NCBI GenBank assembly: GCA_002069885.1
Contig: MWCD01000001.1
Location: forward strand, 2,770 to 66,769
Origin: a bacterium ADurb.Bin236
Lineage (GTDB): Bacteria; UBP15; UBA6099
Length of the DNA stretch: 64,000 bases
Reading direction: 5' to 3'
Below are positions 26,786 through 44,613 of the stretch, piece by piece; position 1 is the stretch's first letter; each line of letters opens with the position of its first letter. The notes under the pieces were generated by a model that was given only the letters and a program-made list of their open reading frames with translations, had not been told where the DNA came from and ran no database searches. Both the position numbers and the translations under genes were made by a program.

Positions 26786-26796
26786 GAGGTTCGGCC

Positions 26797-27682: not shown

Positions 27683-27746
27683 TCGCTTGCGGCTCCCATT
27701 TTGAAGATGAGGCGGACGAAAGAGATAAGAGCGAACAGCGGAAAGG

Positions 27747-29531
27747 ATGATAAAAATGAGCGAAAACGGAAAAGTGAATATCGAGATATCAGGAGACGAG
27801 ATGACGGCGGTGGCCTTCATAACTCCTCCCGGCCTGACAGGCAAACCGGTGGAAGTGGCGGATGTGAAAAAGTCGCTCGAAGAAGCCGGCGTCGTTCACG
27901 GCATAGTGAACAATGAGCGAATTAAATCGTTCGTTGACGAGGGGCGGCTGATCCCAATTGATTTTCTCGCGGCGGCTGGAACCCGTCCCGGGCATGGCGC
28001 GGACGCTTCTATTGAAAACGTCTGGCTTAAAAAAGACGCTCCCGCCAGAATCGACGAAAAAGGCAGGATCAACCTGCGCGAGCTTAATGTCGTGAAATCC
28101 GTGTCTCAGGGTGAAACCATCGCGGTGAAAACGCCGCCCACTCGCGGCGAGACCGGGATGACCGTTAAAGGCGTTGAAATTCCCGGCGAGTGGGGTTCCG
28201 ACGTTTCATTCAAGGCGGGCCGCAATGTAATCGTTTCTGACGACGGGTTGGAGTTCAGGGCCGCAATCAGCGGCTCCCCGAATTACGCGGGCGGAATCCT
28301 CAATGTCGATCCGGTGTTTGTCGTGGATGGCGACGTGGATTACTCCACCGGAAATATCAACTTCGCCGGGGCGCTCGATATAAGAGGAAACGTGCAGGAC
28401 GGTTTCGTTGTCAGGGCAGAGGGAAACATTACGATCGGGGGGAATGTTCAGGCTGCGGAAGTGGTTTCCGGTGGCGATGTCGTTGTGAAAGGCGGCATAA
28501 TCACGCGGCATGAGGGCGTCGTCGCGGCGGCCGGTAGCGTAAGCGCGAAGTTTATCGAAAATTCCGAAGTCGAGGCCGAGGGAGACGTGGTGGCTGAGCG
28601 AGCCGTCATCAATAGTCTCGTCAAATGCAATGGGACCGTGATTTGCTCGGACGGCGAGGGAAAAATCATGGGCGGCGAAATCATGGCCTATAACGAAATC
28701 CGCGCAAAACATCTCGGTTCGGACAAAGAGTCCAAGACCACGCTCCGCGCGGGTTTCAAGCACGACATATACATAAAAATGTCTGAAATGGAAAAAAAAC
28801 TTGAGGAAATAATCGAGGAAGCCGCCGGTCTTCAGAAAAACCTCCTCGCAAAAAACGCCAAACCGGAACTGGTCGCCGAGGTGAAACAGAAAATCCAGTC
28901 TCTTGAGACCGAAAAGTTAGGCCTTCAGCAGAGAATCGCTTCGCTTCGCCTCCGGGTTCAGGTGAACCCGTTTGCGACGGTGAAAGGCGAGGAATACATA
29001 CATCCCGGCTGCGTGGTTTACATCGGCGGTTCAAGGGAAAGGATAGCGAACCCCCTCAAGTTCGCCACTCTTATGGCGGACGCTGACGGGGGCGTGGCGT
29101 TGTCGTCTTACGACGAAACCAGCGGAAGCATCAAAACGGTTAGAGTCGGCTCGAAAGAAAAAAAGAAAACTGTCATGATAGTGGACGACGCCAGATTCAT
29201 GAGAAACAAACTCAAGAACATCCTCGAAAACGGCAACTTCAGAGTGGTTGGCGAAGCCGAGGACGGCAGACAGGCGGTGATGTTGTTCCAGAAACTCAAG
29301 CCAGATGTCGTGACCATGGACATAACGATGCCAGATGTCGACGGCATCAGCTCTTTGCGGGCGATAAAGAAAATTCATCCGGACGCAAGAGTCGTTATGA
29401 TATCGGCGCTCGGACAGAAAGAGAAAGTCCGCGACAGTCTTGTTGCCGGCGCGAGGGACTTTATTATAAAACCTTTCATCCCTGAGAAAGTCATCGACAC
29501 CATGACTAAAGTTCTTGAAAAAACCAACTGA
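27747..29531 (+). CDS. FapA/DUF342 domain protein fused to a C-terminal CheY-like receiver (594 aa)
   Basis: N-terminal DUF342-type beta-helical repeats (GNINFAGALDIRGNVQDGFVV...GGNVQAAEV), a coiled-coil segment, then VMIVDDARFMRNKL...VTMDITMPDVDG...K. Confidence 0.7.
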   Translation: MIKMSENGKVNIEISGDEMTAVAFITPPGLTGKPVEVADVKKSLEEAGVVHGIVNNERIKSFVDEGRLIPIDFLAAAGTRPGHGADASIENVWLKKDAPARIDEKGRINLRELNVVKSVSQGETIAVKTPPTRGETGMTVKGVEIPGEWGSDVSFKAGRNVIVSDDGLEFRAAISGSPNYAGGILNVDPVFVVDGDVDYSTGNINFAGALDIRGNVQDGFVVRAEGNITIGGNVQAAEVVSGGDVVVKGGIITRHEGVVAAAGSVSAKFIENSEVEAEGDVVAERAVINSLVKCNGTVICSDGEGKIMGGEIMAYNEIRAKHLGSDKESKTTLRAGFKHDIYIKMSEMEKKLEEIIEEAAGLQKNLLAKNAKPELVAEVKQKIQSLETEKLGLQQRIASLRLRVQVNPFATVKGEEYIHPGCVVYIGGSRERIANPLKFATLMADADGGVALSSYDETSGSIKTVRVGSKEKKKTVMIVDDARFMRNKLKNILENGNFRVVGEAEDGRQAVMLFQKLKPDVVTMDITMPDVDGISSLRAIKKIHPDARVVMISALGQKEKVRDSLVAGARDFIIKPFIPEKVIDTMTKVLEKTN

Positions 29532-29544
29532 GGCGGATACGGCG

Positions 29545-30081
29545 ATGAAAGCGGTTTTTCTGAATCCTTTTGTGAAGTCTGTTTTTGAGATACTCGAAAG
29601 CGTGGTTTATGAGACTCCCGAAAAAGGCGACATATTCATCCGGGAACGGTATCCGTGCAACATGGAGACCGTCTCGGCGATGGTTGGCATAACCGGAAAG
29701 CTTACGGGGCAGGTGACGCTGACCATGAGCCGCAAGTCGGCAATCTCCATCGCGGCAAAAATGATGATGGAGGATGGACTTGAGGAATTGGACGAATGCG
29801 CCCAGAGCGCGCTCGCCGAGATGGCGAACATGGTGGCCGCCAACGCCGCCGCCAGCCTATGCGACGACGGATATGAATGCGACATCACCACTCCGACGGT
29901 GATTACCGGCTCCAACATCGAGATTTCCTTCAGGCCGGAAGTAAAAACTATCGTTATTCCGCTTACGCTCAGCGTAGGCAGCATCGACGTGAATATTTCA
30001 GTGGCCGAGACATCTTTTATAAAAGGGTTGCAAGGCTCCGCGCGCGCGGCATCCGAAACTGCCGCCGCAGGGGCGATTTGA
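29545..30081 (+). CDS. cheX: second CheX-like (CheC-family) phosphatase
   Basis: MVGITGKLTGQVTLTM...LAEMANMVAANAA matches the CheX family. ATG 29545. Confidence 0.6.
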   Translation: MKAVFLNPFVKSVFEILESVVYETPEKGDIFIRERYPCNMETVSAMVGITGKLTGQVTLTMSRKSAISIAAKMMMEDGLEELDECAQSALAEMANMVAANAAASLCDDGYECDITTPTVITGSNIEISFRPEVKTIVIPLTLSVGSIDVNISVAETSFIKGLQGSARAASETAAAGAI

Positions 30082-30108
30082 AATACTGAAAGTTTAATTG
30101 AGGTTATT

Positions 30109-30516
30109 ATGGCGGCTTTTAACTGGAGCGATAAATATTCGGTAAATGTGGCCGAGATGGACGCGCAACATAAAAAACTAGTGGGGCTTCTTAACGAGCT
30201 TGACGAGGCCATGAGTCAGGGCAAAGGAAGAACCATCGTCGGAAGGATTCTATCGGGTCTGGTCGATTACGCGGCGACTCACTTCCGAGATGAGGAATCT
30301 CTGATGGAGCGGCATGGTTTCGCAGACATTGAGGCGCACAAGGCTCTTCACGACAAGTTGACGGCCCAAGCCACAAGCCTCAACGCTGAGTTTCAAGCGG
30401 GAAGCATTTCTGTCACCATAGATACTATGAATTTCCTTACGAACTGGCTGACCGACCACATTCTCGGAACGGACAGCAGGTACGGCGCATATCTCAACGG
30501 GAAAGGAATATACTGA
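30109..30516 (+). CDS. bacteriohemerythrin (hemerythrin-like metal-binding domain), 135 aa
   Basis: MDAQHKKL, HFRDEE, HKALH and TNWLTDHI His/Glu iron ligands spaced as in hemerythrin. Confidence 0.8.
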   Translation: MAAFNWSDKYSVNVAEMDAQHKKLVGLLNELDEAMSQGKGRTIVGRILSGLVDYAATHFRDEESLMERHGFADIEAHKALHDKLTAQATSLNAEFQAGSISVTIDTMNFLTNWLTDHILGTDSRYGAYLNGKGIY

Positions 30517-30563
30517 ATCCGGTTCATCCGAGCGTGAAGCGGCTGCGGTAAGGTTAATCATCG

Positions 30564-31850
30564 ATGAGCGAATCATCTTGCAACTTGTCTGGCGTGGCTC
30601 TTGTGATGTCGGATTTTTTAGATTTGGTGAACCCGAAACTGTCCGGGCATCACAGGTCAGTTGCGTATATCGCAATGTCCGTGGCGGAAAGGCTGGGCCT
30701 GCCGTCCGAGAGCAAAGAAGACATAATACTGGCGTCTCTAACACACGACATAGGCGCGCTTTCCGTTGCCGACAGGATGGAGGCGCTGGATTTCGAGTTC
30801 GTCGACGCCGACAGCCACGCGCGAGCCGGAAGCAGGCTGATCGCAGCGTGCGCTCCGCTTTCCGGCGTGGCGGACATTGTGGCCCGGCATCATGAATGGC
30901 ACGACTCATTCGTAAAATCAGGGGTGGACGCCGACATTGCGTTGAGCGCCTCGATAGTCCATCTCGCCGACAGGGTGTCCATTCTGCTGAACGACAGCTC
31001 CGAGCCGTTGTCGCAACGCAAGAAAATAATCGAAAAAATATCCAAAAGGGCAGGCGGAATGTTCAACCCGCGGGTCGCGGCCGCATTCATCGAAGAATCG
31101 CGCCGCGAAGCGTTCTGGTTCGGCACATTGCCGGAATTCAGAGACTCGGCCATCGCAAGGTTCGTGTCTGAAAACGGGGACGTTGACCTGTCAACGGCTG
31201 ACATGCTCGATGTGGCTAAGCTCTTCTGCCGGATAATAGACTACCGGAGCAGTTTCACCGCCGCGCATTCAGCGGGAGTGGCGGCCTGCGCCAGCGCTAT
31301 CGGCGGCTGCCTAGGTTTGCCGAACCATGAAAAAGCGCGGCTGGAAACTGCGGGCTATATGCACGATATCGGCAAAATGGCGGTTCCTTCATCCCTTATT
31401 GAAAAAAGAGGCGGGCTTGCCGACGAAGAGTTCAACATAGTGAAGTCTCACGCGTTTTATACTTATCACCTTCTGGACAAACTACCCTGTTTTTCCGTCG
31501 TCAGGGATTACGCCGCCATGCACCACGAAAAAATAAACGGGAACGGCTATCCTTTCAAACTCAAAGGCGGCGAGATACCGACGGGAGCCAGAATCGTGGC
31601 GGTCGCAGACGTGTTCACAGCCCTCTCAGAAGACCGTCCGTTCAGAAAAGCCTTAGCATTGGATGACACAATCAAAACTATCGACGAGATGGCTTCAGAC
31701 GGCTCTCTTGACGGCGATATCACGCGCGCGCTCAAATCCAACCTGAGCCTTGTCGATTCAGCCAGAGCAAAAGCGCAGCGCGCAGCCATTTTTGAATACC
31801 GCTCTTTCGAGGACGGACGCGGAATAATCGCTCACAGCGCGTCAGCTTAA
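30564..31850 (+). CDS. tandem-HD protein: degenerate N-terminal HD domain plus canonical C-terminal HD-GYP c-di-GMP phosphodiesterase domain
   Basis: First domain has LTHDIG...HHEWHD with no GYP. Second has MHDIGK...HHEKINGNGYP. Confidence 0.8.
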   Translation: MSESSCNLSGVALVMSDFLDLVNPKLSGHHRSVAYIAMSVAERLGLPSESKEDIILASLTHDIGALSVADRMEALDFEFVDADSHARAGSRLIAACAPLSGVADIVARHHEWHDSFVKSGVDADIALSASIVHLADRVSILLNDSSEPLSQRKKIIEKISKRAGGMFNPRVAAAFIEESRREAFWFGTLPEFRDSAIARFVSENGDVDLSTADMLDVAKLFCRIIDYRSSFTAAHSAGVAACASAIGGCLGLPNHEKARLETAGYMHDIGKMAVPSSLIEKRGGLADEEFNIVKSHAFYTYHLLDKLPCFSVVRDYAAMHHEKINGNGYPFKLKGGEIPTGARIVAVADVFTALSEDRPFRKALALDDTIKTIDEMASDGSLDGDITRALKSNLSLVDSARAKAQRAAIFEYRSFEDGRGIIAHSASA

Positions 31851-31903
31851 CTAACGAAAGGCCGGACGACGCCGACAACTAGGCAATCCGGGATAATGGA
31901 GAT

Positions 31904-32512
31904 ATGGAAAACACAGCCAGAAAATTTATCAGATCAAAAAAAATCCTTGTTGAGAACGTGGAGCCGGGGATGACGCTCGCAGAGGACATTAAAACCGCAG
32001 CGGGCGGAGTAATTCTTCCGGCGGACTCCATCCTATCAATGACCAACATCGAGAGGTTGAAAGAGTTTGATATTTTCTCGATATATGTCGAGGAAGAGAC
32101 AGTTCTCCGGGAGTCCGACGCAATGCGCGGGAAGCGAGCTGTGGTTATCGACGACGCTCTTTTCTTCAGGCACATGTTCTCCAAGATGCTCTACAAGATG
32201 GGCATATTCGTGATGGAAGAAGTGGAAACCGCAGAGGAAGGCGTGTGCCACGCGAGAAAATACCGGCCGGACCTCGTGATAGTCGATATCCATCTTCCCG
32301 GCATGACCGGTATAGAAGCGATTAGGGACATAAAAAGCAAATGCAGCGGCTCGAAATGCGTCGCAGTTTCCACTGACAAAGACCGGAAGACGGTAGTGGA
32401 CGCCCTGCGCGCCGGAGCCGATGACTTTCTGGTCAAACCTGTAATGTGGGATCGCCTCAAACCTAGGATATGCAAACTATTTGATAGTGGCAAAGACGCT
32501 GTTGTCATGTGA
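31904..32512 (+). CDS. response regulator with an N-terminal domain of unknown function and a C-terminal receiver
   Basis: VVIDDALFFRHM...VIVDIHLPGMTG...K receiver in the C-terminal half. Confidence 0.7.
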   Translation: MENTARKFIRSKKILVENVEPGMTLAEDIKTAAGGVILPADSILSMTNIERLKEFDIFSIYVEEETVLRESDAMRGKRAVVIDDALFFRHMFSKMLYKMGIFVMEEVETAEEGVCHARKYRPDLVIVDIHLPGMTGIEAIRDIKSKCSGSKCVAVSTDKDRKTVVDALRAGADDFLVKPVMWDRLKPRICKLFDSGKDAVVM

Positions 32513-32702: not shown

Positions 32703-33033
32703 TTGTTCAAAGTCAGCGCAAATGAGAATCCTAGGCGATAGAAACAAATAATAGATGCGGGTAGTGAGTCAAGGGGCTGGCTTTGCGATGCTGAAGGTGG
32801 TATTAAAGGAGCTTGGCATTGCAGAGATAAATGTTTTAAAAAAGATTAAGAAGCCAATTCCATGTGAGCCGAAAATCCTTAAATGTGCGCAAGATTTGTG
32901 CTAGGGTTTTTATGAATTTGCAGAAGCAATTAAAATTGGCTAAAATCCAAAATCGCTCTTATTTACTGGGCGTTTTCTATGCCGAAGAAGGGAATCGAAC
33001 CCCCACGAGGAGTGATCCTCGGCAGATTTTGAG
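32703..33033. repeat. 331-bp direct repeat, about 99% identical to 44250-44581: a 277-bp non-coding block plus the 54-nt tRNA-Leu 3'-half
   Basis: Base-by-base comparison shows one substitution and one 1-nt indel. It ends exactly at the anticodon-loop junction of the tRNA fragment (32980-33033). Confidence 0.85.
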
Positions 33034-33863
33034 AGAATTGAGAATCTCAAAATTTATTTTCATACAAGGCTTTTATTACATTCAAACAACCTGTGTTACG
33101 CGTGTGTTATAGAGATTCAGGATACATTCATTAAATTCTTGGATTGAAAAGGGTGTGGTAAATTATTCATGCCAATAATGTGACAATGTACTCCTCGTGA
33201 TGTATATTCGGGTTAAAGAGACATTTGCTTGTCCTTAGAGAATCTTTAACAATAGCGACCATTGCTAATAGGAGGCTTGAAAACTTAAAACTTGCGTTCG
33301 GAACATCTGCCTCTCTTGCTGATTTCCGATTCTCATTATCGATTAAGATGAACAACGCAGTCAGACGCTGGAACAACCTTTATGTTAAAGTAACAGACGC
33401 CTATAGAAACAGAAATTCAACTACACTTCAAAACCGTGATTATTGAAATAACGTCTATGCACGAAGTTGCATCGTGCGCTGTGGGTAAACCACTCCACGC
33501 ACGATGATTTTGCCTTTATCGCAGAACTCCGCGACATCCGCGCCTTATCCCACCTGTTTTCGTTTTTTTCCCGATACTCCTTAACGGCAGAGGTTTCGAC
33601 TTCATACTCAAGTTCCTTGTTTCTCTGAAAGTCATACAATGAGATTATATTTTTACGCGTTGCTGTAGGAAATGATGTCATACGATTTATTATTTGGAAT
33701 TATACATGAATTGTTGCTGTTTTCGCTCATGCACAAAAGAATGATTTTTGCGCCGGCGCACAAAAAGATAGGTGAAATCTATTAAGAACAACTATAATTT
33801 GCCAGATTCTATATAAATTCGGAGAAACAGCAATCAATTATCTTCGGATTTGGGAATTAGGTT

Positions 33864-36800
33864 TTAGTCGAATTTGAATTTAATGGAAATGTAAGGGCCT
33901 TTGCCCCAATAAGAGTCGCCGGCGAGGTCGGAGTCGAAGTCGTCGAAGCTGTAGCCTGTTGTCAACCAGATGTTTTTCAAGCATTTGTAGCCGAGTTCGG
34001 CGGAACCGCCGATGCTCTGTGAATTGATGCTTCTGCTTCTCAACGTCCTTGCTTCCAGCCCGATGTCGAACCTGCTGGTCAGATCATAAGTAAACCGCCC
34101 GGCAACCATATCAGTGTAAGACCTGAACAAGTCTGTTTTTGAAATTTTTGCCGCGTATTTTCCGGTTAACGAAAAGCTTTTCGACGGGTGGTAAACGCCC
34201 TCTATGGAATAGATCCTCGCCGACGGAGTGGAGTCCGAAACGACGGGAGAGCTTCTGTCGCGCTTGAATTCTATACGAGCGAAAGCATTGAAGCGGTTGT
34301 TGTGGGCTGGTCTGTAGGCGACACCGACCATGCTGCCGGTGGTGGTGCGCTGTGCTCCGGTCGAGTATCCGGTATTGGACCACCGTTGGCGAAGGAGCAG
34401 GGAGTAATCTGTTCCCATCTTGGCAGCCAGACCGAGTTCGGCGAGGCGGGAAGTATCGAGAGTCGAGTCGCGGTATTCGGCTCTTGCGGTCATTTTAACA
34501 TCTCTCATGAACACAAATTCAGTTCCCGCCGTAACCGCGAAAGCATCGGGGTCGCGCTGCATCTCCGCGCCCTTTACGGTGTTTAGTTTTTCGAGGGAGA
34601 CAGATCCGGAAACCCGGTCGTTGAGAGCAAACTTGTTTCGGACGCCGATAGCCCGCTGGACCCTGCGGCCGTCCGCGCCGCCTTCGAGCCGGTATTCGTT
34701 AAACGCGGACGTGTCCCGCGCAATCGGAGTCTCAACGCCGAGGACATTGCGCCAGCTCCGGCTGCCGTCGAGCCGCCAGAACTCTCTCCTTGCATAAAGA
34801 TGTCCGGCGCCCTTCAGTTTGTAGTCCAGTTTGGCGCTGCTGACGTTGAAGTTGTTATCCTGAATGTCCTGCTGGTGTTCCAGAGTGAGCGCGAGCCTCG
34901 GCCTGATGTTCCCGGTGAGCGAAAACCGCGCGGCGGTCGTCTTACTCGGCGTGCGCTCGGAGATGTCGAAAGGATACCGTGTCCGGTCGGTGTTCGTGAT
35001 GATAAAGTTATCATTGGAACTTTCGCGCAGCAGCTCCGACTCGAATTTCATGTTCCGAATCGTCCGTTTCAGGAGAATCGAGCTCAGGCGGTGATCCATG
35101 TAGTTGACGCTGTCTCTCTCCGTGAAGAACTTGCCCGCGAGGGTCGTGTTTCGATTTTTGAGGAATGAGAATTCGAGTCCTTTTTTCTCCATGCCGCGCT
35201 GCGCATCCACCGCAGACATATTCCCGAAGTAACTCCTCGTGTTTCTCCAGTAGGCGGTAATTTTCGTTCTCTCCAGCGCGTCGCTCTTAAGTTCGAACGA
35301 CCACCCGCCGCCGTTTTTAAGCGCGAGGATATTGTCGATGTTGAACAGCGACTTCGTTTCGGCAAACTCGTATTTCAGGGTGGTGAGCTTGTGGAGTTTG
35401 TAGTCGAAGTCCATGCCCCAGAGATGATAGTCGGAGGTTTCGGCTTCCTGAGTGACTCCCGTGAACCCGACACCGAGGCGGTCGTTCAGTTTGAACCTCA
35501 GCCGGGCGCCGTAGATGTAATACGTGTTTCCGCCGCCCTCTGTCTCATAGCTGACAATCAGGTAAACGGGATTCAGGTCTTCGTCGTAGCTTGGCAACGG
35601 ATCCTTTAGCAGGATTGCGCCGGTTTCGTAATCGATGGAGTATTCGGACCACCTTGACAGTGTGTCTCTGTTCAGCGCCGCCTCTGGCCGGAGCCTGTCG
35701 CGGATTTCGACGGCCACGGTTTCGCTGCCGTCCATAATCGGGGCGGCGGACAGATAATAGTAGCCGGATACGCCGCGGCCGGGTATCGCGTCCACCACCT
35801 GCGACTGGTCGGTGTGAGTCTCGAATGCGGACAGGCGGTACTTATCCGTGTTCATGCCGATCTTCAGGCCGTTGAAGGAGCGCGAGTACGCGCTCAGTTT
35901 CGTCTCGTTGAATCCCGTCTCAAAGTCTCCGAACAGCAAATGGGACTTGCGGCGGTCGAGACGCAGATAAAGTTTCTCGCGGGACTGAGCTTCGAAGCTC
36001 GTCACGCTGTCGTCGCCGTAGATCGGGTACTGGTCTTCGGCGTCAGGATTGCGCAACGAGTTAAAGAAAAGGTCGGGGCGTTTGCTCTTGTGTGAGTCGT
36101 ATGAGAGAGTAAGAAGCGAATCGTCGCCGATTTTTCTTTTTGTGAACAGAGCGCCGCGGGCGCCAGCGTAGCCGCCCCGGTCGAACCAGCCATCGCTGCT
36201 GCGGATCAGTTCCGTGTCTCCGCCCGCTTTCCCGCTGCCGAACCTGAATTCCACGAGGCCCACCGAGAGGTTGTCGCCGAGGTCGGGCGTGAAGTGCACC
36301 TTCGCGGAACCCTGTAGTTCGCCGAACGCGACGGTTATCACCGCCTCGCCTGCCTGTCTCGGCGCTTTTACATCGAACCGCGCAGCGCCGCCGCTGTAGA
36401 GAACCTGCACGCCGTCCATGCTCGCGTCCGCGTCTTTCGTGTCTATTTCCCCGGAGGTTGTTTCGACGGTCGCGATACCTTCATATGCCACGGGAAGCCC
36501 TTTATCGTCGTACACCGAAGCGGAGACGCGCGCCTTCGAAGCGCCGTCCGCGATGATTTCCGTTTTTTCGGGTTTCACCTCAATCTTGGCGGGTAGCCCG
36601 GCGGCGGTAATCCTGATTTCCTTTTCGCTTGTTATATTTCCGTCTTCGTCCCGGGTTTCCGCGCGTATCGCGTTTTCCGCTCCGGGCGCGAGTTGGATTC
36701 CTATGTATTGGTAGATAGCTATTTCAAGCTCGGATTCCGTTATCTTTTTACCGACCCTTTTGCTGCTAACCGGTTCGTCGTTGAGGAAGAGGTAAACCTT

Positions 36801-39800
36801 CGCGGCAAGCGGAGCTTTGACCGTGATATTAGTGTTTGCCGCCGAGGAGACCGATCCGTCCTCGGGATAGAGGATGTCGAGGTCGGGAGTCATCGATGAA
36901 ATCTCTTCTTCGAGAGGAACGTAAACGAACTCTGTCCTGCCGGCGGCCGCGGCCTGTCCGGAGGTTGCGGCTTTTTCGCGGGTTTCCATATTTCTTCTAT
37001 CCGCTGATTCCTTATCGCCGGATACAGTGAAGTCCGCGTTCATGATGCCGCCGGAAACCATGTCTATGAACTGCGAATCCGGATCGCCGGCGAACCTGTT
37101 GGTGGATAGCGAGGAGATCGATATTCCGGCGGGAAGGGTCTTTGCTTCGATCTTAAGCACATGCAGTCCGGGCGTTACGCCGATCACCGAATACTTGCCG
37201 TCCGTTCCGGTTACGATCCTCGCGCCGTCTTCCATGTAAATTGCGACTCCGGACACACCCGGCTCTCCGCGGCTCTGCATTCCGTCGCCGTCAGAATCCA
37301 CAAAAACTTTGCCGACGATGGTGCCGTTCGAGGTGAACACGCCTTCTTTAATGGTTACAGTGTAATATGCGGTGTTGGAAGAAACTGTTTTTGCGCCGAG
37401 AGTTCCCTGAGCGTAAGCGGTGTTTTTGCCATCGCCACGCTTGCTGTCCACTCCGACGACCGTGCTGTAGGAAATTTCGAAGTAACCGCCGGCTGCAAGG
37501 GAAGTGACGCTCCACGCGAGAGTCATGGAAGCGGGCCTTGCGGGGTCAGCCGCCGCGCCGCTGAGTGTTGTCGAGCCGTCGATATACTGCATCCCATGCG
37601 GCAGTATGTCGGTCACCGTGATGTCGTTCACCGGCCAGCTTCCCGAGTTGGAAACACGCACCGTGTACCTTACGATATCTCCGATAGTGGCATTTTTTTT
37701 ATCTGCGGTCTTGGTCACTGCGAGAAGTTCGATCACCGGCGGGTCCACCGGGATGTCGAAGTTCAACGGATAATAAACCAAGTCTCCGCTTTCGACAACG
37801 CCCGCGTCCTCAAATTCGCCCGGGAGCGGGGTTACGAAAGGATTGCCCTTAGACCTTTCATCCACCCTGTACTGCTTCGGCATCTCCGAATTGGGAATCA
37901 GTGATGGGAAAGTAAAATTTCCTCCGACTGCAACGCTTACCCGGTAGTGAGCGCCGTCGGGTGTCTTGGGAACATAGTAAAAAGTAAAAACACCGTCCGC
38001 GCTGGTTCCCGCAACCGAGGGGCTGGGATTGGGTTGGTTATAAGGAAGCGCGACAGAAGTTTCCACGGACTGATCTATTTGGGTAAGGGTCACCACGGCG
38101 CCCGCGACCGGTTCGCCGGTCATCGAGTTGAATACACGGCGCTGCGGCTCCACTAACGCGAACTGACGTGAAAGCGGGGTGCCGTTCGGATCAAACGGAT
38201 CGATATATATCCCTTCGAGTTCTCCTCCCGCAGTTAATGTTATATGACCGTTTCCGGACGTTGCGGCGGTCGCCGATGACCTTGCCGCGCGCGTGGCGGC
38301 CATTTCGCACTGACCGCTGTTCAAGATGTTCGGCACGCAGCCGCGGAACATTTCGGAGTTCGTCCCGACCTCGGTAAGCACGACGGTTTCCGTATCGCCG
38401 CTCAACTTATCAACAATTGTGACTTCCAATGTGTCTTTTGTGTTGGGATTGATATTTCTATCCGCGTCGTTGACTTGCAGATATATGTCCTCATAAGTCA
38501 TTAGCGTGCGTTTAATAGTCGTATATGTTTTATTGTAGATTTCTAGGTAATTATCGACGTCGCGAGCCGAAACCACGGTGGTCGCAGTCGCTGACACCGG
38601 GTCTGAGTCGTCCGCTGTTACGGTCGCCACATTTTTAATCGTATCGCCATCGAGTTCGCTGTCCGGCACGTTGAGAAGCAACTTGAGAGTTTTGCTTTCT
38701 CCGGCGGACAGATCGCCGATGTTCCATGAAACCGAGCCGTTGGAGAAAGTCCCCCCGTTGTCCGCGCTGACGAAACTCGTTTTCTCCGGGATGGGGTCTG
38801 TAGCGAACACGTTTGAAAGCTGTATGTATCCGTCGTTGGAAATCAGTATGGTGTAATAGATGTCGTTTCCCGCGAACGCGGGAAGGCCGGTCTTTGTAAC
38901 TGAAAGCGATGCCTTGCGGATATAAGTTTCGACCGAATTAGAAACCGCCGGAGCAAGTTCGGCGCAGGTTATCGAGGCGATATTGGTGATGGTGGTTTCG
39001 AGCGCGGAGATGGATGAAACGGAAACGGAGAATTCCAGATCGCCTTCAGCGCCGGGAACGATAGCTCCGAGATCCCATGAAACAATGCGGCCCGAGAGAA
39101 CACCGCCGCCCGTGATCGAATTTTCCACGAGCGAGGTTTCGGACGGCAATTCATTGATGACTCTCGCCAGAGACGCATCCGCATTGCCGATGTTCTTGTA
39201 ATGAAGAGCGTAGGTGATTGTGCCGCCGGGGCCGACCACGGCGGACGAGGCCGATAGCGACAGTTTAAGATTCGGTCCCGCGCCGACCATTATGCTATTG
39301 GTATAATTGGTTTGTGTTTCATCCGAAACCATCGTGATGGAATTCTCGATGACATCGCCGACTGAAATTGCGCTTGGGTCGGCGGGAGGATAATCGGCCG
39401 CAGTTTTGACGACGCCGGTGAGTGTGAGCGTGCCGCTCTGACCTACTGCCAGCGATCCGAGATTCCATGAAACGGTCCCGCCGGCCGGACCGGCGGCGTA
39501 AACTCCGCCGCCGGTCGCCGACGAGAATATCACATAATCAGAAATCGAGTTCGTGAGAACTACATTCGATGCATCAGAATTGCCCGAGTTCTCGTAGTAG
39601 ATCGTATAAACGAGCAGTGACCCCATAGCCGTCGGGTCGGAGCTTTCAGTGACCCGGAGGAACAGAACGGGGGCTCCGGAAACTGTGACCTCCGCCTGAG
39701 CTTCGACTCCGGGCATGGGATTTCCGCCCGCGTCACGATACGAAACGAGAGCGCGGTTGACAATCAGGGTTCCGATCGGAGGGCTAGATGCGCGCGCCGG

Positions 39801-39884
39801 CGGGCATGCTGCGGCAAGCGCCATCAGGCATATAAGCGCCGCTCGCGCTGCAATACCGGTGATTTTGCGCTTTACCGATCCCAT
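33864..39884 (-). CDS. giant secreted DUF11-repeat / Ig-like surface protein with a roughly 900-aa C-terminal predicted outer-membrane beta-barrel (2006 aa)
   Basis: Signal peptide MGSVKRKITGIAARAALICLMALAAACPPARA. Multiple DUF11-type repeats (LxYTIxYxNxGNxxASNVVL). C-terminal region has alternating hydrophobic/aromatic strands and ends in ...ISIKFKFD. Confidence 0.75.
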   Translation of the reverse strand: MGSVKRKITGIAARAALICLMALAAACPPARASSPPIGTLIVNRALVSYRDAGGNPMPGVEAQAEVTVSGAPVLFLRVTESSDPTAMGSLLVYTIYYENSGNSDASNVVLTNSISDYVIFSSATGGGVYAAGPAGGTVSWNLGSLAVGQSGTLTLTGVVKTAADYPPADPSAISVGDVIENSITMVSDETQTNYTNSIMVGAGPNLKLSLSASSAVVGPGGTITYALHYKNIGNADASLARVINELPSETSLVENSITGGGVLSGRIVSWDLGAIVPGAEGDLEFSVSVSSISALETTITNIASITCAELAPAVSNSVETYIRKASLSVTKTGLPAFAGNDIYYTILISNDGYIQLSNVFATDPIPEKTSFVSADNGGTFSNGSVSWNIGDLSAGESKTLKLLLNVPDSELDGDTIKNVATVTADDSDPVSATATTVVSARDVDNYLEIYNKTYTTIKRTLMTYEDIYLQVNDADRNINPNTKDTLEVTIVDKLSGDTETVVLTEVGTNSEMFRGCVPNILNSGQCEMAATRAARSSATAATSGNGHITLTAGGELEGIYIDPFDPNGTPLSRQFALVEPQRRVFNSMTGEPVAGAVVTLTQIDQSVETSVALPYNQPNPSPSVAGTSADGVFTFYYVPKTPDGAHYRVSVAVGGNFTFPSLIPNSEMPKQYRVDERSKGNPFVTPLPGEFEDAGVVESGDLVYYPLNFDIPVDPPVIELLAVTKTADKKNATIGDIVRYTVRVSNSGSWPVNDITVTDILPHGMQYIDGSTTLSGAAADPARPASMTLAWSVTSLAAGGYFEISYSTVVGVDSKRGDGKNTAYAQGTLGAKTVSSNTAYYTVTIKEGVFTSNGTIVGKVFVDSDGDGMQSRGEPGVSGVAIYMEDGARIVTGTDGKYSVIGVTPGLHVLKIEAKTLPAGISISSLSTNRFAGDPDSQFIDMVSGGIMNADFTVSGDKESADRRNMETREKAATSGQAAAAGRTEFVYVPLEEEISSMTPDLDILYPEDGSVSSAANTNITVKAPLAAKVYLFLNDEPVSSKRVGKKITESELEIAIYQYIGIQLAPGAENAIRAETRDEDGNITSEKEIRITAAGLPAKIEVKPEKTEIIADGASKARVSASVYDDKGLPVAYEGIATVETTSGEIDTKDADASMDGVQVLYSGGAARFDVKAPRQAGEAVITVAFGELQGSAKVHFTPDLGDNLSVGLVEFRFGSGKAGGDTELIRSSDGWFDRGGYAGARGALFTKRKIGDDSLLTLSYDSHKSKRPDLFFNSLRNPDAEDQYPIYGDDSVTSFEAQSREKLYLRLDRRKSHLLFGDFETGFNETKLSAYSRSFNGLKIGMNTDKYRLSAFETHTDQSQVVDAIPGRGVSGYYYLSAAPIMDGSETVAVEIRDRLRPEAALNRDTLSRWSEYSIDYETGAILLKDPLPSYDEDLNPVYLIVSYETEGGGNTYYIYGARLRFKLNDRLGVGFTGVTQEAETSDYHLWGMDFDYKLHKLTTLKYEFAETKSLFNIDNILALKNGGGWSFELKSDALERTKITAYWRNTRSYFGNMSAVDAQRGMEKKGLEFSFLKNRNTTLAGKFFTERDSVNYMDHRLSSILLKRTIRNMKFESELLRESSNDNFIITNTDRTRYPFDISERTPSKTTAARFSLTGNIRPRLALTLEHQQDIQDNNFNVSSAKLDYKLKGAGHLYARREFWRLDGSRSWRNVLGVETPIARDTSAFNEYRLEGGADGRRVQRAIGVRNKFALNDRVSGSVSLEKLNTVKGAEMQRDPDAFAVTAGTEFVFMRDVKMTARAEYRDSTLDTSRLAELGLAAKMGTDYSLLLRQRWSNTGYSTGAQRTTTGSMVGVAYRPAHNNRFNAFARIEFKRDRSSPVVSDSTPSARIYSIEGVYHPSKSFSLTGKYAAKISKTDLFRSYTDMVAGRFTYDLTSRFDIGLEARTLRSRSINSQSIGGSAELGYKCLKNIWLTTGYSFDDFDSDLAGDSYWGKGPYISIKFKFD

Positions 39885-39915
39885 AAACAGCTCAGAACCC
39901 TTTCATTCCAATTCG

Positions 39916-41709
39916 TCAATTTATAGTCACAGAAAACCGCAGGACATACGTGCCGCCTGCGCCGAGACTCGGCGTTTCACCGAGAGCGTTGTTGGAACCC
40001 GAGTCGTAAGTCGCGCCGTCGCCGTCGCTTGCATCCGTCCGGGAAACAAGCGTTCCCGTAGTGGCGCCCGTGTACAGACTGCCCGGCACGTATGTCGTGT
40101 GCAGCGGGATGTGATCGGTTATAACTACTACCGTGGCCACTCCTGTGCCGGAATTGGTTGCAGTTATCGTGTAGGTGAGAGTCGTTCCGGGAGGCTGAGT
40201 TCCGGTAGGGCTGACCGATTTGGTAAGCGTGACAACCGGCGCTGTGACCGTGGTGGTGAAGGTAAGGATGTCGCTCTTCGAGGTGTCAACCGAAGACTTC
40301 CCGGTCACGGCAAGGGTATCGATGCTCTGGTCCGAGGCGCCGGCGGGTATCGTAACTACTGCCAGCACAGAGATGGTCCCATTCTGCGCCAGCGTGCCGG
40401 TATCGACTTTGCCGTCGGCATCCGTGTCCGTCAGCAGATAATCTCCGTCGTTGCCGGATATGCCGTCGTTGTTCATATCCGCCCAGAACACCCATGTCCA
40501 GCCTTGGCTGGACGTGTAAGTCAAGTCGATCACGTCGTTGGAGTTTGTGTAGTTGTGGACTGTGAAAGGGTAGGTGATTTTGTCGCTCGGATCGCCTGAA
40601 AGCGCTGTTATGGTGACGGTCAGGTCAACCGAAGCGAGCGCGCCCACGAATAACGTTCTGCCGTTCGAGTATGTGGTTACATTGTTCGGCCCGGAAACGT
40701 ATGCGACGGACGCCTGATTCGTGATGGTCGAGTTATATGCCACGCCGCTGTTCACCGTGGCCTGAAATGTCACCGCCTTGGTTGAACCGGCATTGATTGT
40801 TCCCACAGTTACCGTCACCGCGCCTCCGGTTGTCCCGTTGTAATCCGAGCCGTCGTCGCCGGTGGCGTCCGTTTTCGTGGTTCCGTCTAATGTTATGCTG
40901 CCCGGCACGTACGTGACGCCCGTCGGGACGACGTCGGTCATTACAACCGAAGTTCCCGCCGACGACCCGGTGTTCGACATGGTGATCGTGTATGTCACGG
41001 TGTCGCCGGGCGCGGGGGATTCAGGCGAGTGGGTCTTAGCGGCATTAATCACCGCCGCGGCGACTGTCGTGGTGTACAGACCCGTGGTTGTCTGCCCGGG
41101 GTCGAACTGCGAAGTCGCCGTTATGGTAATGGTGTTGCTCGTGCCGTCCGTGGCGGCGCCGGACGCCGGAATCGTCACAAACATAAAAACGTCGTAATCG
41201 TCGTCCGCAACGACTGTTCCGGTTGTGTATTTTCCGGCGACGGCGGTCATCAGCGTGTCCGTCCCGGCATCGTAAGTATGGTTATTGTTAATATCGTAAT
41301 AGAATGTGATCGAAGACGGTGTCCACGCGCCCCCGACTGCATACGTGAAGTCGAACTTGTCGCTTCCGTTTCCGTCATTGAATATCTGAAAAAAATGCAT
41401 GATCGTAGTGTTGTTGGCGCCTGCCATGGTCCCGGACGGAGGGACTAACGAGACTGCTGCCACCTGACTTACCGTAGTTGTGACGGTGTTCGAGTAAACG
41501 CGCGTCATCGAGTTGTTGTTGGCGTCCTTGTAGTCAACGTACGCTTGATTCGAGATGATGGTGCCGGATGCCGTCCCGACCGCGTACAGTTTCGCCGCGG
41601 CCGCGACTATCCCCGCCGCCGCGAGCAGGAACAGCAGCGCCTCTAAAAACCGTTTCTTTTTTCCGTTTCTTATTTTCGTTGCATTTCTCATTACAGAGCC
41701 CCCTTTCAA
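39916..41709 (-). CDS. secreted DUF11-repeat protein (597 aa)
   Basis: Signal peptide-like N-terminus. Repeated TYTITxxNTG / DxxDxDG blocks. Confidence 0.7.
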   Translation of the reverse strand: MKGGSVMRNATKIRNGKKKRFLEALLFLLAAAGIVAAAAKLYAVGTASGTIISNQAYVDYKDANNNSMTRVYSNTVTTTVSQVAAVSLVPPSGTMAGANNTTIMHFFQIFNDGNGSDKFDFTYAVGGAWTPSSITFYYDINNNHTYDAGTDTLMTAVAGKYTTGTVVADDDYDVFMFVTIPASGAATDGTSNTITITATSQFDPGQTTTGLYTTTVAAAVINAAKTHSPESPAPGDTVTYTITMSNTGSSAGTSVVMTDVVPTGVTYVPGSITLDGTTKTDATGDDGSDYNGTTGGAVTVTVGTINAGSTKAVTFQATVNSGVAYNSTITNQASVAYVSGPNNVTTYSNGRTLFVGALASVDLTVTITALSGDPSDKITYPFTVHNYTNSNDVIDLTYTSSQGWTWVFWADMNNDGISGNDGDYLLTDTDADGKVDTGTLAQNGTISVLAVVTIPAGASDQSIDTLAVTGKSSVDTSKSDILTFTTTVTAPVVTLTKSVSPTGTQPPGTTLTYTITATNSGTGVATVVVITDHIPLHTTYVPGSLYTGATTGTLVSRTDASDGDGATYDSGSNNALGETPSLGAGGTYVLRFSVTIN

Positions 41710-41713
41710 GGAC

Positions 41714-42241
41714 TTACTTTACTTTTACTTTAAAACTGACCTTGCCCGACTTTCCCGGCTCCACCGTTTTGGCAATCAGCCACTTGATGTGGGTGTACAT
41801 ATCCGCCGGGGCTTCTTTCTCTTCGCTTTTTCCATCGGGTTTTTCCTCTATATATTTAATCGGAGGTTTCTGGAACACCCGCCCTCCGTCTATACTGAAT
41901 CCAATCTCCGTGTCTTTTCCATCAGCGCTGCCGATTATGTAAACCGTACCCTTCGGGACTGGGTCCACCACGGAGATGTCCTTCAACGGCGCTTTTCCTT
42001 CATTGGTGTAGGTTATGGCATAAACCAGAACGTCGCCGCGTTCAGCGTTGTCCGCAGGCTTCAGTTCCGTAACTTTCTTTCCGTTCTTCTCGACAATGGA
42101 TACAAGGTTTGCTTTGATTTCGAGCTTCAGAGGCTGTTTTAGCGATTTGCCTTTTTCCTGCGCCACCGCGGACCGCGCCGCGAACGCCGCCATCAGAAGA
42201 ACCACGACAATGCAAGCTGTTCTGATCTTGTAATTTTTCAT
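41714..42241 (-). CDS. small secreted single-DUF11-domain protein (175 aa)
   Basis: Signal peptide MKNYKIRTACIVVVLLMAAFAARSAVAQE, then DVLVYAITYTNEGKAPLKDISVVDPVP. Confidence 0.7.
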   Translation of the reverse strand: MKNYKIRTACIVVVLLMAAFAARSAVAQEKGKSLKQPLKLEIKANLVSIVEKNGKKVTELKPADNAERGDVLVYAITYTNEGKAPLKDISVVDPVPKGTVYIIGSADGKDTEIGFSIDGGRVFQKPPIKYIEEKPDGKSEEKEAPADMYTHIKWLIAKTVEPGKSGKVSFKVKVK

Positions 42242-42254
42242 GATATGTTTCCTT

Positions 42255-44015
42255 TCAATTCACGGACACCGTGAAGCAGACAATCCCCTCGTCCGTCCCT
42301 GAATTAGGAACGGAGTCGTTAGCGGAAACGTTGCCGATTTTGAAAATGATGTTGGAGCCGCTGAGTTCAGCTTCGTCGCCGTCCACGGCGTCTGTTTTAG
42401 CAGTAGCCGTAGCGCAAGTGGCGGCGGCGCCGCCGATCTTGAGGCTGTTTACGCTATATATTGCTCCCGTCGGTATTGAGTCGGTGATCTGAACCACGCT
42501 CGCCGCCGCGCCTCCAATATTTTGATACCTGACCGTGTATGTTATCGTCGCCCCGGGCAGCACGGTGGCTGTTGACGTCGTTTTGGTCAGTGTGATCTGG
42601 GGCGCGGTGACAACAACAGGCGCGGTGTGGCCCGTGGTTGCCGTGGTGAAGTTTGCGCCGGACACCGTCGCGGTATTGTAGGCCGTCGTGTTCGGCCCGC
42701 CGACTTTCGCCTTGAATATAAGCGTCACTGTTCCATTCACGATCCCTACTTTTTTCGGAACTGTCCAGCTACCGCTCCAAGTCTGGTTCTGCCCGTTTAT
42801 CGTCGGATTTGAAGTAGTCAGTCCGGATGTGTTTCCCGTTATGTAAGTGAATCCGTTCGGAAGAGTATCAGTGATATTGGAAATCCAGCCGTCGCCCGGC
42901 CCGCTGTTGGTGACTGTGATTGTGTATGTGGCGGTTGCGCCCGAAACCGCTGATCCGACATCGACTACTTTTGCGATCGTTATCGTAGGGCCGTATATCT
43001 GAAGCGTATCGGTTCGCGTCTGATTCATAAGCCCGCCGGCGCTTATTTGATCGTGGTATGTCACTGTAACCGTCTCGGAAGGCATGACCTCGAGGATATT
43101 GTTCCCAAGTATCGGTATGGAGGAGGAAGTAGTGGCCGACCCGGTGAATATTCCGGTGTTCGCTCCTGTTTCCGTGAGAGTAATAGCCAGCGTATCTCCC
43201 GTCTGGGTCGTCAGGGTGACGGTTACCGTCTGCGTTGTTGCGGTGTCAACATTAATGTCCGAGTCGTTCACGCGAACGTATAGCGAAGCGCCGGAGTCTG
43301 CCATAGTAACATCGCCGTTCCCCGCAGCGTCCGCCACAAACATCACGGCGCCTGTGGTCGGCGTTGTGCCGACCAGCTTAACAGGGTCGGAAACCGCCGT
43401 GTATAGATCCGATCCGGCCACGAGGTCCGCAGAAAGAACTACTCCGTTGCTCGAGGACCCGAACCACAGCCTTATGGGAGAATTGTCATTAATCCCGGTC
43501 GCCGTTTTGAATGTGCTGTATGGGAATCTCCAATCGACGAAGTAATCCTGATTTCCGTTTATTGTCGTATCAGCGGCGGTGATTACGATATTACCTGAAA
43601 CCGTAATGGTCGAAACGCTGGTCTCCGGGCCATCGTTTGGGCTTCCCATCGTTCCCTGCGTCGAATTCTGCCACAGGACTATGGTTTCGGGATTTCCGAT
43701 TCCGTCAACCATTATAGACCATTCATAATCTCCCGCGTTGTTGTTTGAATCGATCAGCACTCCCCAGCCGAATGAAGCAAGCAGCCCTTGTCCGCCGGAG
43801 CCTGCAGGGTTGGAGTCTAACCTGAGCCGGAAATACATATAATTGCCGTCGTTGTAAATGAAAGCCGCATCGTGCGCGGGCGAGGATACTATATTTCTCG
43901 AACCGTTAGCATCAGTGAGGGAATCCTGAAGCAGGTCGCCATTTTTGAATACCGGAATCCACTGCGCAGTCGTCGGCCATGCCTCAACCTTCGTTGCCTG
44001 CAGCAAAGCCGACAA
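42255..44015 (-). CDS. DUF11-repeat surface protein (586 aa as called). The true start is probably upstream, up to about 44063.
   Basis: DUF11 blocks (ATYTITVTNSGPGDG, ITYTVRYQNIGGAAAS). An in-frame upstream extension encodes a textbook signal peptide (SKKHTIQIFFISIIALSALLQA|TKVEA) but no ATG/GTG/TTG precedes it. Confidence 0.65.
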   Translation of the reverse strand: MSALLQATKVEAWPTTAQWIPVFKNGDLLQDSLTDANGSRNIVSSPAHDAAFIYNDGNYMYFRLRLDSNPAGSGGQGLLASFGWGVLIDSNNNAGDYEWSIMVDGIGNPETIVLWQNSTQGTMGSPNDGPETSVSTITVSGNIVITAADTTINGNQDYFVDWRFPYSTFKTATGINDNSPIRLWFGSSSNGVVLSADLVAGSDLYTAVSDPVKLVGTTPTTGAVMFVADAAGNGDVTMADSGASLYVRVNDSDINVDTATTQTVTVTLTTQTGDTLAITLTETGANTGIFTGSATTSSSIPILGNNILEVMPSETVTVTYHDQISAGGLMNQTRTDTLQIYGPTITIAKVVDVGSAVSGATATYTITVTNSGPGDGWISNITDTLPNGFTYITGNTSGLTTSNPTINGQNQTWSGSWTVPKKVGIVNGTVTLIFKAKVGGPNTTAYNTATVSGANFTTATTGHTAPVVVTAPQITLTKTTSTATVLPGATITYTVRYQNIGGAAASVVQITDSIPTGAIYSVNSLKIGGAAATCATATAKTDAVDGDEAELSGSNIIFKIGNVSANDSVPNSGTDEGIVCFTVSVN

Positions 44016-44249
44016 GGCTATAATTGAAATAAAAAAAATTTGTATTGTATGTTTTTTTGAAATATTAAATTCCTCTCATTTTAATATATATATCACAAAA
44101 CAATCTCATTATGACAAGCTTGTTAAAAAAATATCTTAATAATTAATAATTGAAGTTTTCACCCGCGCAGGATAATAATTCGAAGATGACTATCTCAAAT
44201 GGTTTGAGGGGCGCGGCGAACAGTGAGCAGTTGGAGATGACCATGCGCC

Positions 44250-44581
44250 TTGTTCAAAGTCAGCGCAAATGAGAATCCTAGGCGATAGAAAACAAATAAT
44301 AGATTCGGGTAGTGAGTCAAGGGGCTGGCTTTGCGATGCTGAAGGTGGTATTAAAGGAGCTTGGCATTGCAGAGATAAATGTTTTAAAAAAGATTAAGAA
44401 GCCAATTCCATGTGAGCCGAAAATCCTTAAATGTGCGCAAGATTTGTGCTAGGGTTTTTATGAATTTGCAGAAGCAATTAAAATTGGCTAAAATCCAAAA
44501 TCGCTCTTATTTACTGGGCGTTTTCTATGCCGAAGAAGGGAATCGAACCCCCACGAGGAGTGATCCTCGGCAGATTTTGAG
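44250..44581. repeat. 332-bp direct repeat (partner of 32703-33033) lying 3' of, and overlapping, the intact tRNA-Leu
   Basis: Same comparison as for 32703-33033. Contains a TTGCAG-N17-TAAAAT promoter-like motif at 44466-44494 on the plus strand. Confidence 0.85.
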
Positions 44582-44613
44582 TCTGCTGCGTCTACCTGTT
44601 CCGCCACTTCGGC
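44528..44613 (-). tRNA. tRNA-Leu (anticodon CAA), class II with long variable arm. CCA not encoded.
   Basis: Reverse complement folds by hand as GCCGAAG / D-arm GCG-GAACAGGTAGA-CGC / anticodon stem GCAGA, loop CTCAAAA (CAA) / variable arm CGAGGATCACTCCTCGT / T-arm GGGGG-TTCGATT-CCCTT with two G-U pairs / CTTCGGC plus discriminator A. Confidence 0.8.

Follow-up and report, generated by a model that had tools for sequence, protein, structure and literature searches.

A four-gene operon of CLIPPER proteins

The window analysed here, a stretch of 64,000 nucleotides (nt) from the bacterium ADurb.Bin236 (GenBank assembly GCA_002069885.1, contig MWCD01000001.1), carries on its minus strand four consecutive genes for repeat proteins, which we call A, B, C and D. 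A preliminary description made from the letters alone had reported the four genes and their DUF11-type content, and both hold up: the open reading frames (ORFs) are real, encoding 586 amino acids (aa) for A, 175 aa for B, 597 aa for C and 2006 aa for D, and every one of the proteins matches PF01345 or TIGR01451. Since 2025 DUF11 has carried the name CLIPPER (Costa et al. 2025, PMC12617251; PDB 9IFR). It is a CnaA-like domain of the immunoglobulin (Ig) type that occurs in fibrillar adhesin stalks, and its intramolecular Lys-Asn isopeptide bond, catalysed by an Asp, has been shown experimentally (PMC12617251; PDB 9IFR). Here, we report that three of the four proteins end before their last CLIPPER domain is finished and that two begin with a free β-hairpin of the kind that is lacking there. 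This split-domain pattern is the main new finding of our analysis.

All genes and domains of the operon lie on the minus strand. Gene B (41714-42241) codes for a signal peptide and a single hairpin-less CLIPPER domain. Gene C, the proposed shaft or adaptor, was called from a TTG at 41709 (39916-41709, 597 aa); read from the ATG at 41691 (39916-41691), it gives 591 aa with a donor hairpin and an acceptor domain. Gene D, the proposed base subunit, occupies 33864-39884. Clear signal peptides are present in B, C and D. The preliminary description had assigned one to all four proteins, which for A, the proposed tip subunit, is true only from a different start: the 586-aa ORF as called (42255-44015) begins at the TTG at 44015, the only canonical start for A, which would delete most of the signal peptide, whereas the non-canonical ATT at 44063, 8 nt after GAGAGG, gives a 602-aa protein (42255-44063) with a signal peptide at aa 1-28 and cleavage at VEA/WP. 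A signal peptide ending A/WP is present in all A homologues, and the ATT arrangement and its sequence are identical in independent contigs; judged from these patterns, gene A appears to use the ATT start. The intergenic gaps, previously given as 5-31 nt, measure 13 nt between A and B and 31 nt between C and D; between B and C the gap is 4 nt, or 22 nt with the ATG at 41691 as the start of C. The only hydrophobic helices in the four proteins are the signal peptides. The membrane anchor that had been ascribed to one member is thus no transmembrane helix; the 'anchor' is the predicted C-terminal β-barrel of D. Since the same operon and context occur on at least five other independent metagenome contigs, besides the metagenome-assembled genome (MAG) GCA_022704265.1, which shares operon and flanks as well, the operon is not an assembly artefact.

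The preliminary description had also proposed a Pfam check of each protein and a search for isopeptide-forming residues. The former returns PF01345 in A, C and D and, for B, TIGR01451; the latter returns Lys/Asp/Asn triads in several domains, CnaA-like in type. The PF01345 bit scores are 167 for D (in four stretches), 58.6 for C and 57.5 for A, all past the Pfam cutoff; B reaches 22.8 bits, just under the cutoff of 24.6, and passes on TIGR01451 with 39.7 bits against a cutoff of 24. C also matches TIGR04226, the model of the isopeptide-forming fimbrial domain 'RrgB_K2N_iso_D2'. The operon proteins are members of the CLIPPER domain family. When a D domain is aligned to 9IFR, the isopeptide Lys falls at 'vTKt' and the Asp at 'tDxlP'. 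Complete triads are found in the internal domains of both A and C and in domains 3 and 4 of D; D domains 1 and 2 have no isopeptide Lys.

The layouts of the larger proteins differ. D begins with a signal peptide and a donor hairpin and continues with four complete CLIPPER domains, of which the last two are separated by a weak, sub-threshold CarboxypepD_reg-like stretch; an SdrD_B domain, two invasin-like Ig domains and, by prediction, a giant β-barrel follow. A has a signal peptide, a unique conserved N-terminal region that matches no family, one complete CLIPPER domain and a C-terminal CLIPPER domain without its hairpin. B carries a conserved SIDGG...YTHIRW insert. By sequence, the sole solved relative of D is the 9IFR CLIPPER domain, and none was found for C or for the N-terminal region of A. 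Some C homologues are named 'isopeptide-forming domain-containing fimbrial protein' at NCBI, from the domain hit alone. A lead towards type 11 secretion (T11SS) was dropped: the search term 'DUF11' had matched the unrelated DUF1194.

Truncated ends and free hairpins

In each of the proteins A, B and C the chain ends where the last β-hairpin of the final CLIPPER domain would follow. Among the homologues of A (21), B (23) and C (about 27 intact ones), about 70 proteins together, every chain stops 0-2 residues after a strand of the pattern 'G..v.F.V.i[NDKQE]'. Complete CLIPPER domains continue from the same strand into a β-hairpin with the isopeptide Asn; the D domains show 'NtAya...SNtayytV' at this place, as in the example '...GKNTAYAQGTLGAKTVSSNTAYYTV'. 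The acceptor domain of A (42258-42605, aa about 487-602) has the Lys (TLTKT) and the catalytic Asp (ITDSIP) and terminates in '...CFTVSVN' with no Asn hairpin, and that of C (39919-40239, aa about 485-591) has K491 and D526 and ends in '...LRFSVTIN'.

The missing element is found at the other end of two of the proteins. The donor β-hairpin of C forms its mature N-terminus (41467-41583, aa about 37-75, 'GTIISNQAYVDYKDANNNSMTRVYSNTVTTTV'), as does that of D (39675-39788, aa about 33-70, 'SSPPIGTLIVNRALVSYRDAGGNPMPGVEAQAEVTV'). In D this hairpin is an extra one, since all four of its CLIPPER domains have their own. A start of the form 'GTxIxNxAxxxYxDanGN...SNxVxtxV' directly after the signal peptide is shared by all C and nearly all full-length D homologues, and it runs without a linker into the next domain. 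The donor start also occurs in distant B-C'-D operons and in Rhizobiaceae systems; the giant proteins of two-gene systems that have no A, B or C partner start with a complete domain. The window therefore holds three bodies without a hairpin (A, B and C) and two hairpins without a body (C and D). Because D can only donate and neither A nor B has a donor hairpin, one join at the least, that to D, would have to link different polypeptides.

The residues expected to react are conserved on both sides of the split. In C, numbered by the 591-aa form, 67 homologues show no variation at the donor residues G43, N48, A50, D56 and N58 or at K491 and D526 of the acceptor, and A acceptors keep Lys and Asp in at least 90% of sequences. 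In the B family neither is conserved: the B of the window has Leu where many homologues have Lys, other homologues have R, T or Q at this position, and distant ones are also without the Asp.

Acceptor and donor sequences were joined and the gain in bit score on PF24595 was recorded, with the reversed donor and an unrelated N-terminus as controls. The A acceptor gained +14.0 with the C donor and +7.9 with the D donor, against +3.9 with the reversed and about 0 with the unrelated sequence. The corresponding gains were +7.7, +1.5, 0 and about 0 for the C acceptor and +17.7, +9.3, +5.5 and about 0 for the B acceptor. On their own the acceptors match only the front part of the Pfam profiles, and the C donor carries the match to the profile end.

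The C donor thus gained more than the D donor on every acceptor tested, and there are two conserved donor classes (C and D) for three acceptor classes (A, B and C), which suggests specific pairing. On this ground the proteins might form a defined 1:1:1 complex, A-C-D or B-C-D, in which each donor fits one acceptor and the product is one articulated adhesin rather than a pilus of variable length. No sequence feature forbids C-to-C pairing, however; locus L055 has two C-like genes, and Rhizobiaceae operons have two or more small, pilin-like donor-plus-acceptor subunits. We regard a fixed complex as rather doubtful.

A single-chain model of C (mean pLDDT, the predicted local distance difference test, 88.7) places the hairpin at 90-95 and the C-terminal domain at 94-97. 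It is consistent with the hairpin completing the last CLIPPER domain, and as a single chain it fits closure in cis and in trans equally. The last strands of the fold lie at the N-terminus of C and the first strands at its C-terminus, which favours assembly in trans because cutting a tandem array in a loop gives this order and inserting one domain in another would not.

These observations bear on another reading, that of four independent, co-transcribed adhesins without mutual assembly. D would then work on its own as an autotransporter-like fibrillar adhesin, C would close in cis and the ends of A and B would be completed otherwise or tolerated. Among Gram-positive bacteria there are tip adhesins in which both ends of the chain contribute to a domain, and the C model packs its hairpin confidently. 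CLIPPER proteins are, moreover, usually single-chain fibrillar adhesins (PMC12617251). Yet the spare hairpin of D and the unfinished domains of A and B would remain unsatisfied in spite of their conservation, the piece order of C fits a cut array and not a domain insertion, and the strict conservation of gene order and termini across phyla points to co-function. We consider four independent adhesins unlikely, and favour joining between chains; that at least D joins its partner in trans seems to us a likely proposition.

Small proteins of comparable design occur in loci of Rhizobiaceae type (L066, L067, L069, L070 and L080), one or two per operon. They are 325-385 aa long, with a signal peptide, a start A/TIDNTVTA... 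and an abrupt, conserved end '...FTxxYTVTQx[DE][IV]Dxx[QG]'. By their sequence they look like pilin-sized donor-plus-acceptor subunits encoded upstream of stalk and barrel proteins.

The C-terminal module of D and the proposed fibre

The last approximately 800 aa of D (33867-36272, aa about 1205-2006, ending '...ISIKFKFD') had no sequence match in Pfam, NCBIfam or PDB. They are directly preceded by two Ig-like domains of the Big_1 or invasin D3-like type (36285-36887, aa about 1000-1200). A structure prediction of residues 961-2006, made with a 40-sequence alignment (mean pLDDT 82, predicted template modelling score 0.68), contains the two Ig-like domains followed by about 35-40 long β-strands with short turns, as counted from the DSSP string. 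On the strength of this model, the C-terminal module of D is confidently predicted to be a giant outer-membrane β-barrel. A Foldseek search of PDB gave loose likenesses to SlpA, MtrB, SprA, LptD, TonB-dependent receptors and FimD, all with template modelling (TM) scores of at most 0.33; for FimD the value, with the target as reference for normalisation, is 0.33, a weak likeness. The Ig pair matched intimin D00-D0 in this search. In a profile search against PDB sequences the pair matched invasin and the barrel part matched the porin OmpT weakly (E = 2.5e-5), with nothing from ushers, LptD, Omp85 or autotransporters.

After about the first eight strands of the D model, a small β insert (about 35570-35776, D aa about 1370-1438) interrupts the barrel. 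It is the most conserved stretch of the barrel family, with the motif G.SG...S...RDR...R..DY...G...D...NP, and its position recalls, by analogy, the plug domain of ushers. The preliminary description had stated that the operon has no usher. No usher homologue is indeed present; the giant barrel of D is nevertheless the obvious candidate for a pore that would serve both export and anchoring.

The barrel family comprises 3,254 clusters at 50% identity (E <= 1e-30), or 8,192 at E <= 1e-3, and has no annotation in any database searched. Its members come from Desulfobacterota, Nitrospirota, Gemmatimonadota, Gamma-, Beta- and Alphaproteobacteria and further groups. With few exceptions the barrel takes up the C-terminus, be it of a standalone protein of about 1,000-1,200 aa or of one that has a long stalk in front; at the locus level it is either fused to a giant repeat adhesin or encoded immediately downstream of one. 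A minority of members (among them P0253, P0270, P0331, P0337 and P0363) have the barrel in mid-protein, followed by about 300-500 further residues.

A barrel in the outer membrane could in principle face its cargo inward, the stalk and its partners forming a periplasmic or envelope-spanning tether or an S-layer anchor. The topology rests on prediction, and in some relatives an OmpA-family gene lies directly downstream of the barrel gene. By their domain counts, however, more than ten Ig-like domains together with C and A would be far longer than the periplasm is wide; domains of the CLIPPER, SdrD_B and invasin types typically belong to external adhesins, and the tip region of A varies between relatives. 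An inward orientation appears very improbable.

On balance, we lean slightly towards a model in which the operon encodes a self-contained, Sec-dependent surface fibre of split CLIPPER domains in a diderm host. All four proteins would cross the inner membrane by Sec. D would be the base, with its barrel in the outer membrane, its Ig-like stalk of about 1,200 aa pointing outward and its free N-terminal β-hairpin at the end of the stalk. This hairpin would dock into the incomplete final domain of C, A or B, and the hairpin of C into A, B or another C, so that C would be the shaft. The result would be a chain of continuous Ig-like beads that runs from A (or B) through one or several copies of C to D, with A as the distal tip, presumably leaving the cell first, and its unique N-terminal region as the likely binding part outside the cell. 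A and B would act as alternative distal ends in operons that have only one of them.

Because the acceptor Lys and Asp and the donor Asn are invariant or nearly so, the A and C joints would probably be locked by a spontaneous Lys-Asn isopeptide bond with the acceptor Asp as catalyst; taken as a claim of its own, a covalent lock at the joints is one to which we give slightly less than an even chance. B, which is without the isopeptide residues, would bind non-covalently, probably as an alternative cap or as a holding, chaperone-like partner. The barrel would anchor the fibre and would be the most plausible route of the subunits over the outer membrane, since it is the sole candidate for such a route encoded with the system; we view export through it as plausible if somewhat doubtful. 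A possible unrecognised fibre or adhesin made up of tip, small subunit, adaptor and anchor had already been envisaged in the preliminary description. The conserved A-B-C-D order and the complementary ends speak for that outline, and its membrane-anchored member has no helical anchor.

Several observations weigh against this model. In the C model the well-packed hairpin most likely docks on C's own last domain, as in self-closure in cis. The gains in profile score are modest, and PF01345 is less discriminating than PF24595, with a few bits gained even by reversed hairpins. Not every joint or domain can be covalent, since the B of the window has Leu at the Lys position and D domains 1 and 2 lack the Lys. 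B itself is missing from the locus of the cultured Desulfatibacillum. Since no split CLIPPER domain links the giant protein to the barrel protein in two-gene systems, the split is a feature of one branch and not of the whole barrel family. The strand count was read from a secondary-structure string and not from inspected geometry, the case for export through the barrel consists of gene linkage and barrel size, and the mechanism extends beyond the sequence patterns and structure predictions from which we infer it.

Relatives and known systems

The conservation of the operon was assessed on 78 related genome loci, obtained by a context scan with a 10-sequence alignment. The order A-B-C-D is conserved in about 17 of them, in Syntrophales, Smithella, Desulfobacterales, Nitrospirota and unclassified MAGs, with variants elsewhere; the four families recur in Desulfobacterota, Nitrospirota, Lentisphaerota, Moraxellaceae and others. 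In some loci A is placed after D, and the cultured Desulfatibacillum alkenivorans has C-D-A without B. Moraxellaceae, Thiotrichaceae, Oceanococcus and Ca. Angelobacter have a B-C'-D form. A two-gene form, with the gene of a giant repeat protein immediately before that of a separate barrel protein, is found in Steroidobacteraceae, Burkholderiales, Gemmatimonadota and Rhizobiaceae. When all neighbouring ORFs around the operons were clustered, only the A, B, C and D families recurred, so the system looks self-contained. The preliminary description had named as grounds for refutation homologous operons that are always chromosomal and unrelated to surface structures; the loci look like ordinary chromosomal ones, but their genes are surface-structure genes.

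The split-domain rule was also tried on the two-gene systems and rejected there: their giant and barrel proteins are not joined in this way and have other conserved C-terminal modules. These giant proteins (L008, L047, L048, L052 and L062-L085) end in lineage-specific conserved modules, '...LRLxY...YxLxIETRV..' in Alphaproteobacteria and '...VKVWxD..PGARL...WCEEPL' in Gemmatimonadota, and these may couple cargo to the barrel in another manner. In the Steroidobacteraceae locus L008, an OmpA-family gene with thrombospondin type 3 repeats (13207-14355 of that locus) lies directly downstream of the barrel gene, and its product may be a peptidoglycan tether for the system. D is found as two ORFs in L007/L034 and in L018; the break lies inside a domain in L007 and beside a run of N in L018, and both splits are probably assembly or frameshift artefacts.

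Among known systems, the CLIPPER fibrillar adhesins share with the operon the stalk family, the Lys/Asp/Asn triads and the build of long, secreted, repeat-rich proteins (PMC12617251). Those described consist of one polypeptide each, bonded within the chain and anchored in other ways, for example by an OmpA-like domain, whereas the present operon splits terminal domains between proteins and has a giant β-barrel as its anchor, a barrel that the CLIPPER paper (PMC12617251) does not mention.

In its logic the system resembles chaperone-usher pili of the type 1 and P kinds. A donor-less tip, an outer-membrane barrel pore with an inserted domain and a tip-to-base gene order would be common to both, and an incomplete Ig-like fold with an N-terminal donor on the next subunit would be a further parallel. 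The analogy of donor completion is seen in the truncated domains and the N-terminal hairpins; the fold differs, and pairing in trans would be its counterpart here. There are also clear differences. The first is the donor, which is a two-strand hairpin and not a single strand, and which may be locked covalently. The second is the barrel, with about 35-40 predicted strands against the 24 of an usher and fused to the base subunit. In addition, neither the four proteins nor their neighbours matched a PapD-like chaperone, the homologous operons are surrounded by no other conserved gene family, and usher PF00577 gave no Pfam or NCBIfam match in the four proteins, nor did the PDB profile search return an usher.

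Sortase pili (RrgB, SpaA) are alike in their CnaA/CnaB-type isopeptide domains and, under the proposed model, in covalently linked subunits and a division into tip, shaft and base. The present operon has no sortase, LPXTG signal or pilin motif: A, B and C end in '...FxVxV[NK]', and no sortase was found in the window region or related loci. The proposed principle is fold complementation rather than transpeptidation, and the host is diderm. With type V secretion the operon shares a passenger and a barrel in one polypeptide or in adjacent genes and invasin/intimin-type Ig domains beside the barrel. Unlike those systems, the barrel of D is about three times the size of the 12- or 16-strand barrels and has no sequence kinship with them, there is no POTRA or LysM, and extra subunits would be placed on the passenger. 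The autotransporter barrels PF03797 and PF11924 had no match in the four proteins, and the components of two-partner secretion (Omp85-type barrel, POTRA, TPS domain) had no Pfam/NCBIfam or PDB profile match.

Donor-strand insertion combined with an intermolecular isopeptide lock has been described for the archaeal threads of Sulfolobus (PMC9715654) and for BsaA of Clostridium perfringens (PMC11580942); the BsaA bond joins N35 and K74 with E56 as catalyst (PMC11580942). Compared with these, the folds are unrelated (thread subunits and TasA-like), and threads and BsaA are archaeal or monoderm homopolymers without an outer-membrane component. A literature search yielded no paper on the operon, the split domains or the barrel family.

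The system thus follows a chaperone-usher-like logic, yet by the marker genes and domains compared it falls outside the chaperone-usher, sortase, autotransporter and two-partner families. It is best seen as a strand-complementation surface fibre of split isopeptide domains, built on a member of an undescribed family of giant barrels. That it represents an unrecognised kind of diderm pilus or fibre and, with it, a new pathway for export and anchoring at the outer membrane, in which subunits would polymerise by split CLIPPER domains, independently of sortase, chaperone and usher, on a barrel of some 35-40 strands, is a suggestion that we make tentatively.

If correct, the model would give two-membrane bacteria a new way to build covalently reinforced surface fibres, which so far are mainly the sortase pili of Gram-positive bacteria and a few archaeal and clostridial filaments. 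It would also assign a role, as pore and anchor for Ig-repeat adhesins, to a giant barrel family that has no annotation. In the engineered pairs isopeptag/pilin-C, SpyTag/SpyCatcher and SnoopTag/SnoopCatcher, a terminal strand holds one reactive residue, the body holds the other two and the bond forms spontaneously. These pairs are laboratory constructs, whereas the operon would be a natural, conserved and structure-building version of the same principle, and several mutually specific pairs per operon could be of use in protein engineering. Many carriers are syntrophic or sulfate-reducing anaerobes of digesters and sediments, where cell-to-cell attachment matters.

The tRNA-Leu repeat and the surroundings of the operon

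The operon is bracketed by two copies of a 332-nt direct repeat that differ by one indel and one mismatch. The right copy (44250-44581) consists of the 3' half of a tRNA-Leu, from the anticodon loop onward, and 278 nt downstream of it; the intact tRNA-Leu(CAA) gene lies at 44528-44613 on the minus strand. The left copy (32703-33033) includes an orphan tRNA-Leu 3' half at 32980-33033. Between the left repeat and the end of gene D lies an AT-rich, non-coding spacer of 830 nt (33034-33863), in which no convincing ORF, RNA family match or integrase remnant was found; the 2-kilobase (kb) segment enclosing it has a GC content of 0.42. An Rfam scan of the window returned tRNA only.

This arrangement had led the preliminary description to view the operon as island cargo behind tRNA-Leu, bounded by att-like repeats, and one could accordingly propose that it belongs to a mobile element that integrated at tRNA-Leu and is still able to move. 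The anticodon loop is a classic crossover site of tyrosine integrases. The repeat begins exactly there, and the AT-rich spacer lies at one end of the segment. Against such an element, no integrase, excisionase or transfer gene was found within the segment or next to it, none of the spacer's small ORFs matched an integrase, and the GC content is close to that of the flanks. All independent contigs are occupied, and scans of metagenome contigs gave no empty site and no other repeat context, as far as exact matching reaches, which would miss divergent relatives. Only one of 24 homologous operons has a tRNA within 10 kb, the locus L014 with a tRNA-Leu near the operon, and it has no repeats. The repeat is, furthermore, far longer than a normal att core. 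A repeat with half a tRNA thus stands from the earlier view, and the missing mobility gene, the missing empty site and the flank-like GC content do not fit it; an element that can still move seems to us quite unlikely. The boundary at the anticodon loop suggests an old integrase-mediated event, so that a past insertion is possible and present mobility unlikely. Of the shared sequence, the 278 nt beyond the tRNA 3' end would be expected to be ordinary chromosome, and the repeat may have arisen by imprecise excision and re-entry or by homologous recombination.

Two candidate signals flank the genes. A sigma-70-like promoter (44169-44198, minus strand), a consensus match only, lies about 105 nt upstream of the proposed start of A, and a terminator-like hairpin (33745-33766, minus strand) lies inside the AT-rich spacer past the end of gene D. 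The operon has chemotaxis genes as neighbours on one side and cysE/cysK on the other. The chemotaxis-type cluster, directly left of the repeat (25257-32512 of the window), encodes CheR, CheD, two CheX-like proteins, a fusion of FapA with a response regulator, a hemerythrin, a tandem HD-domain (HD_5) protein and a response regulator.

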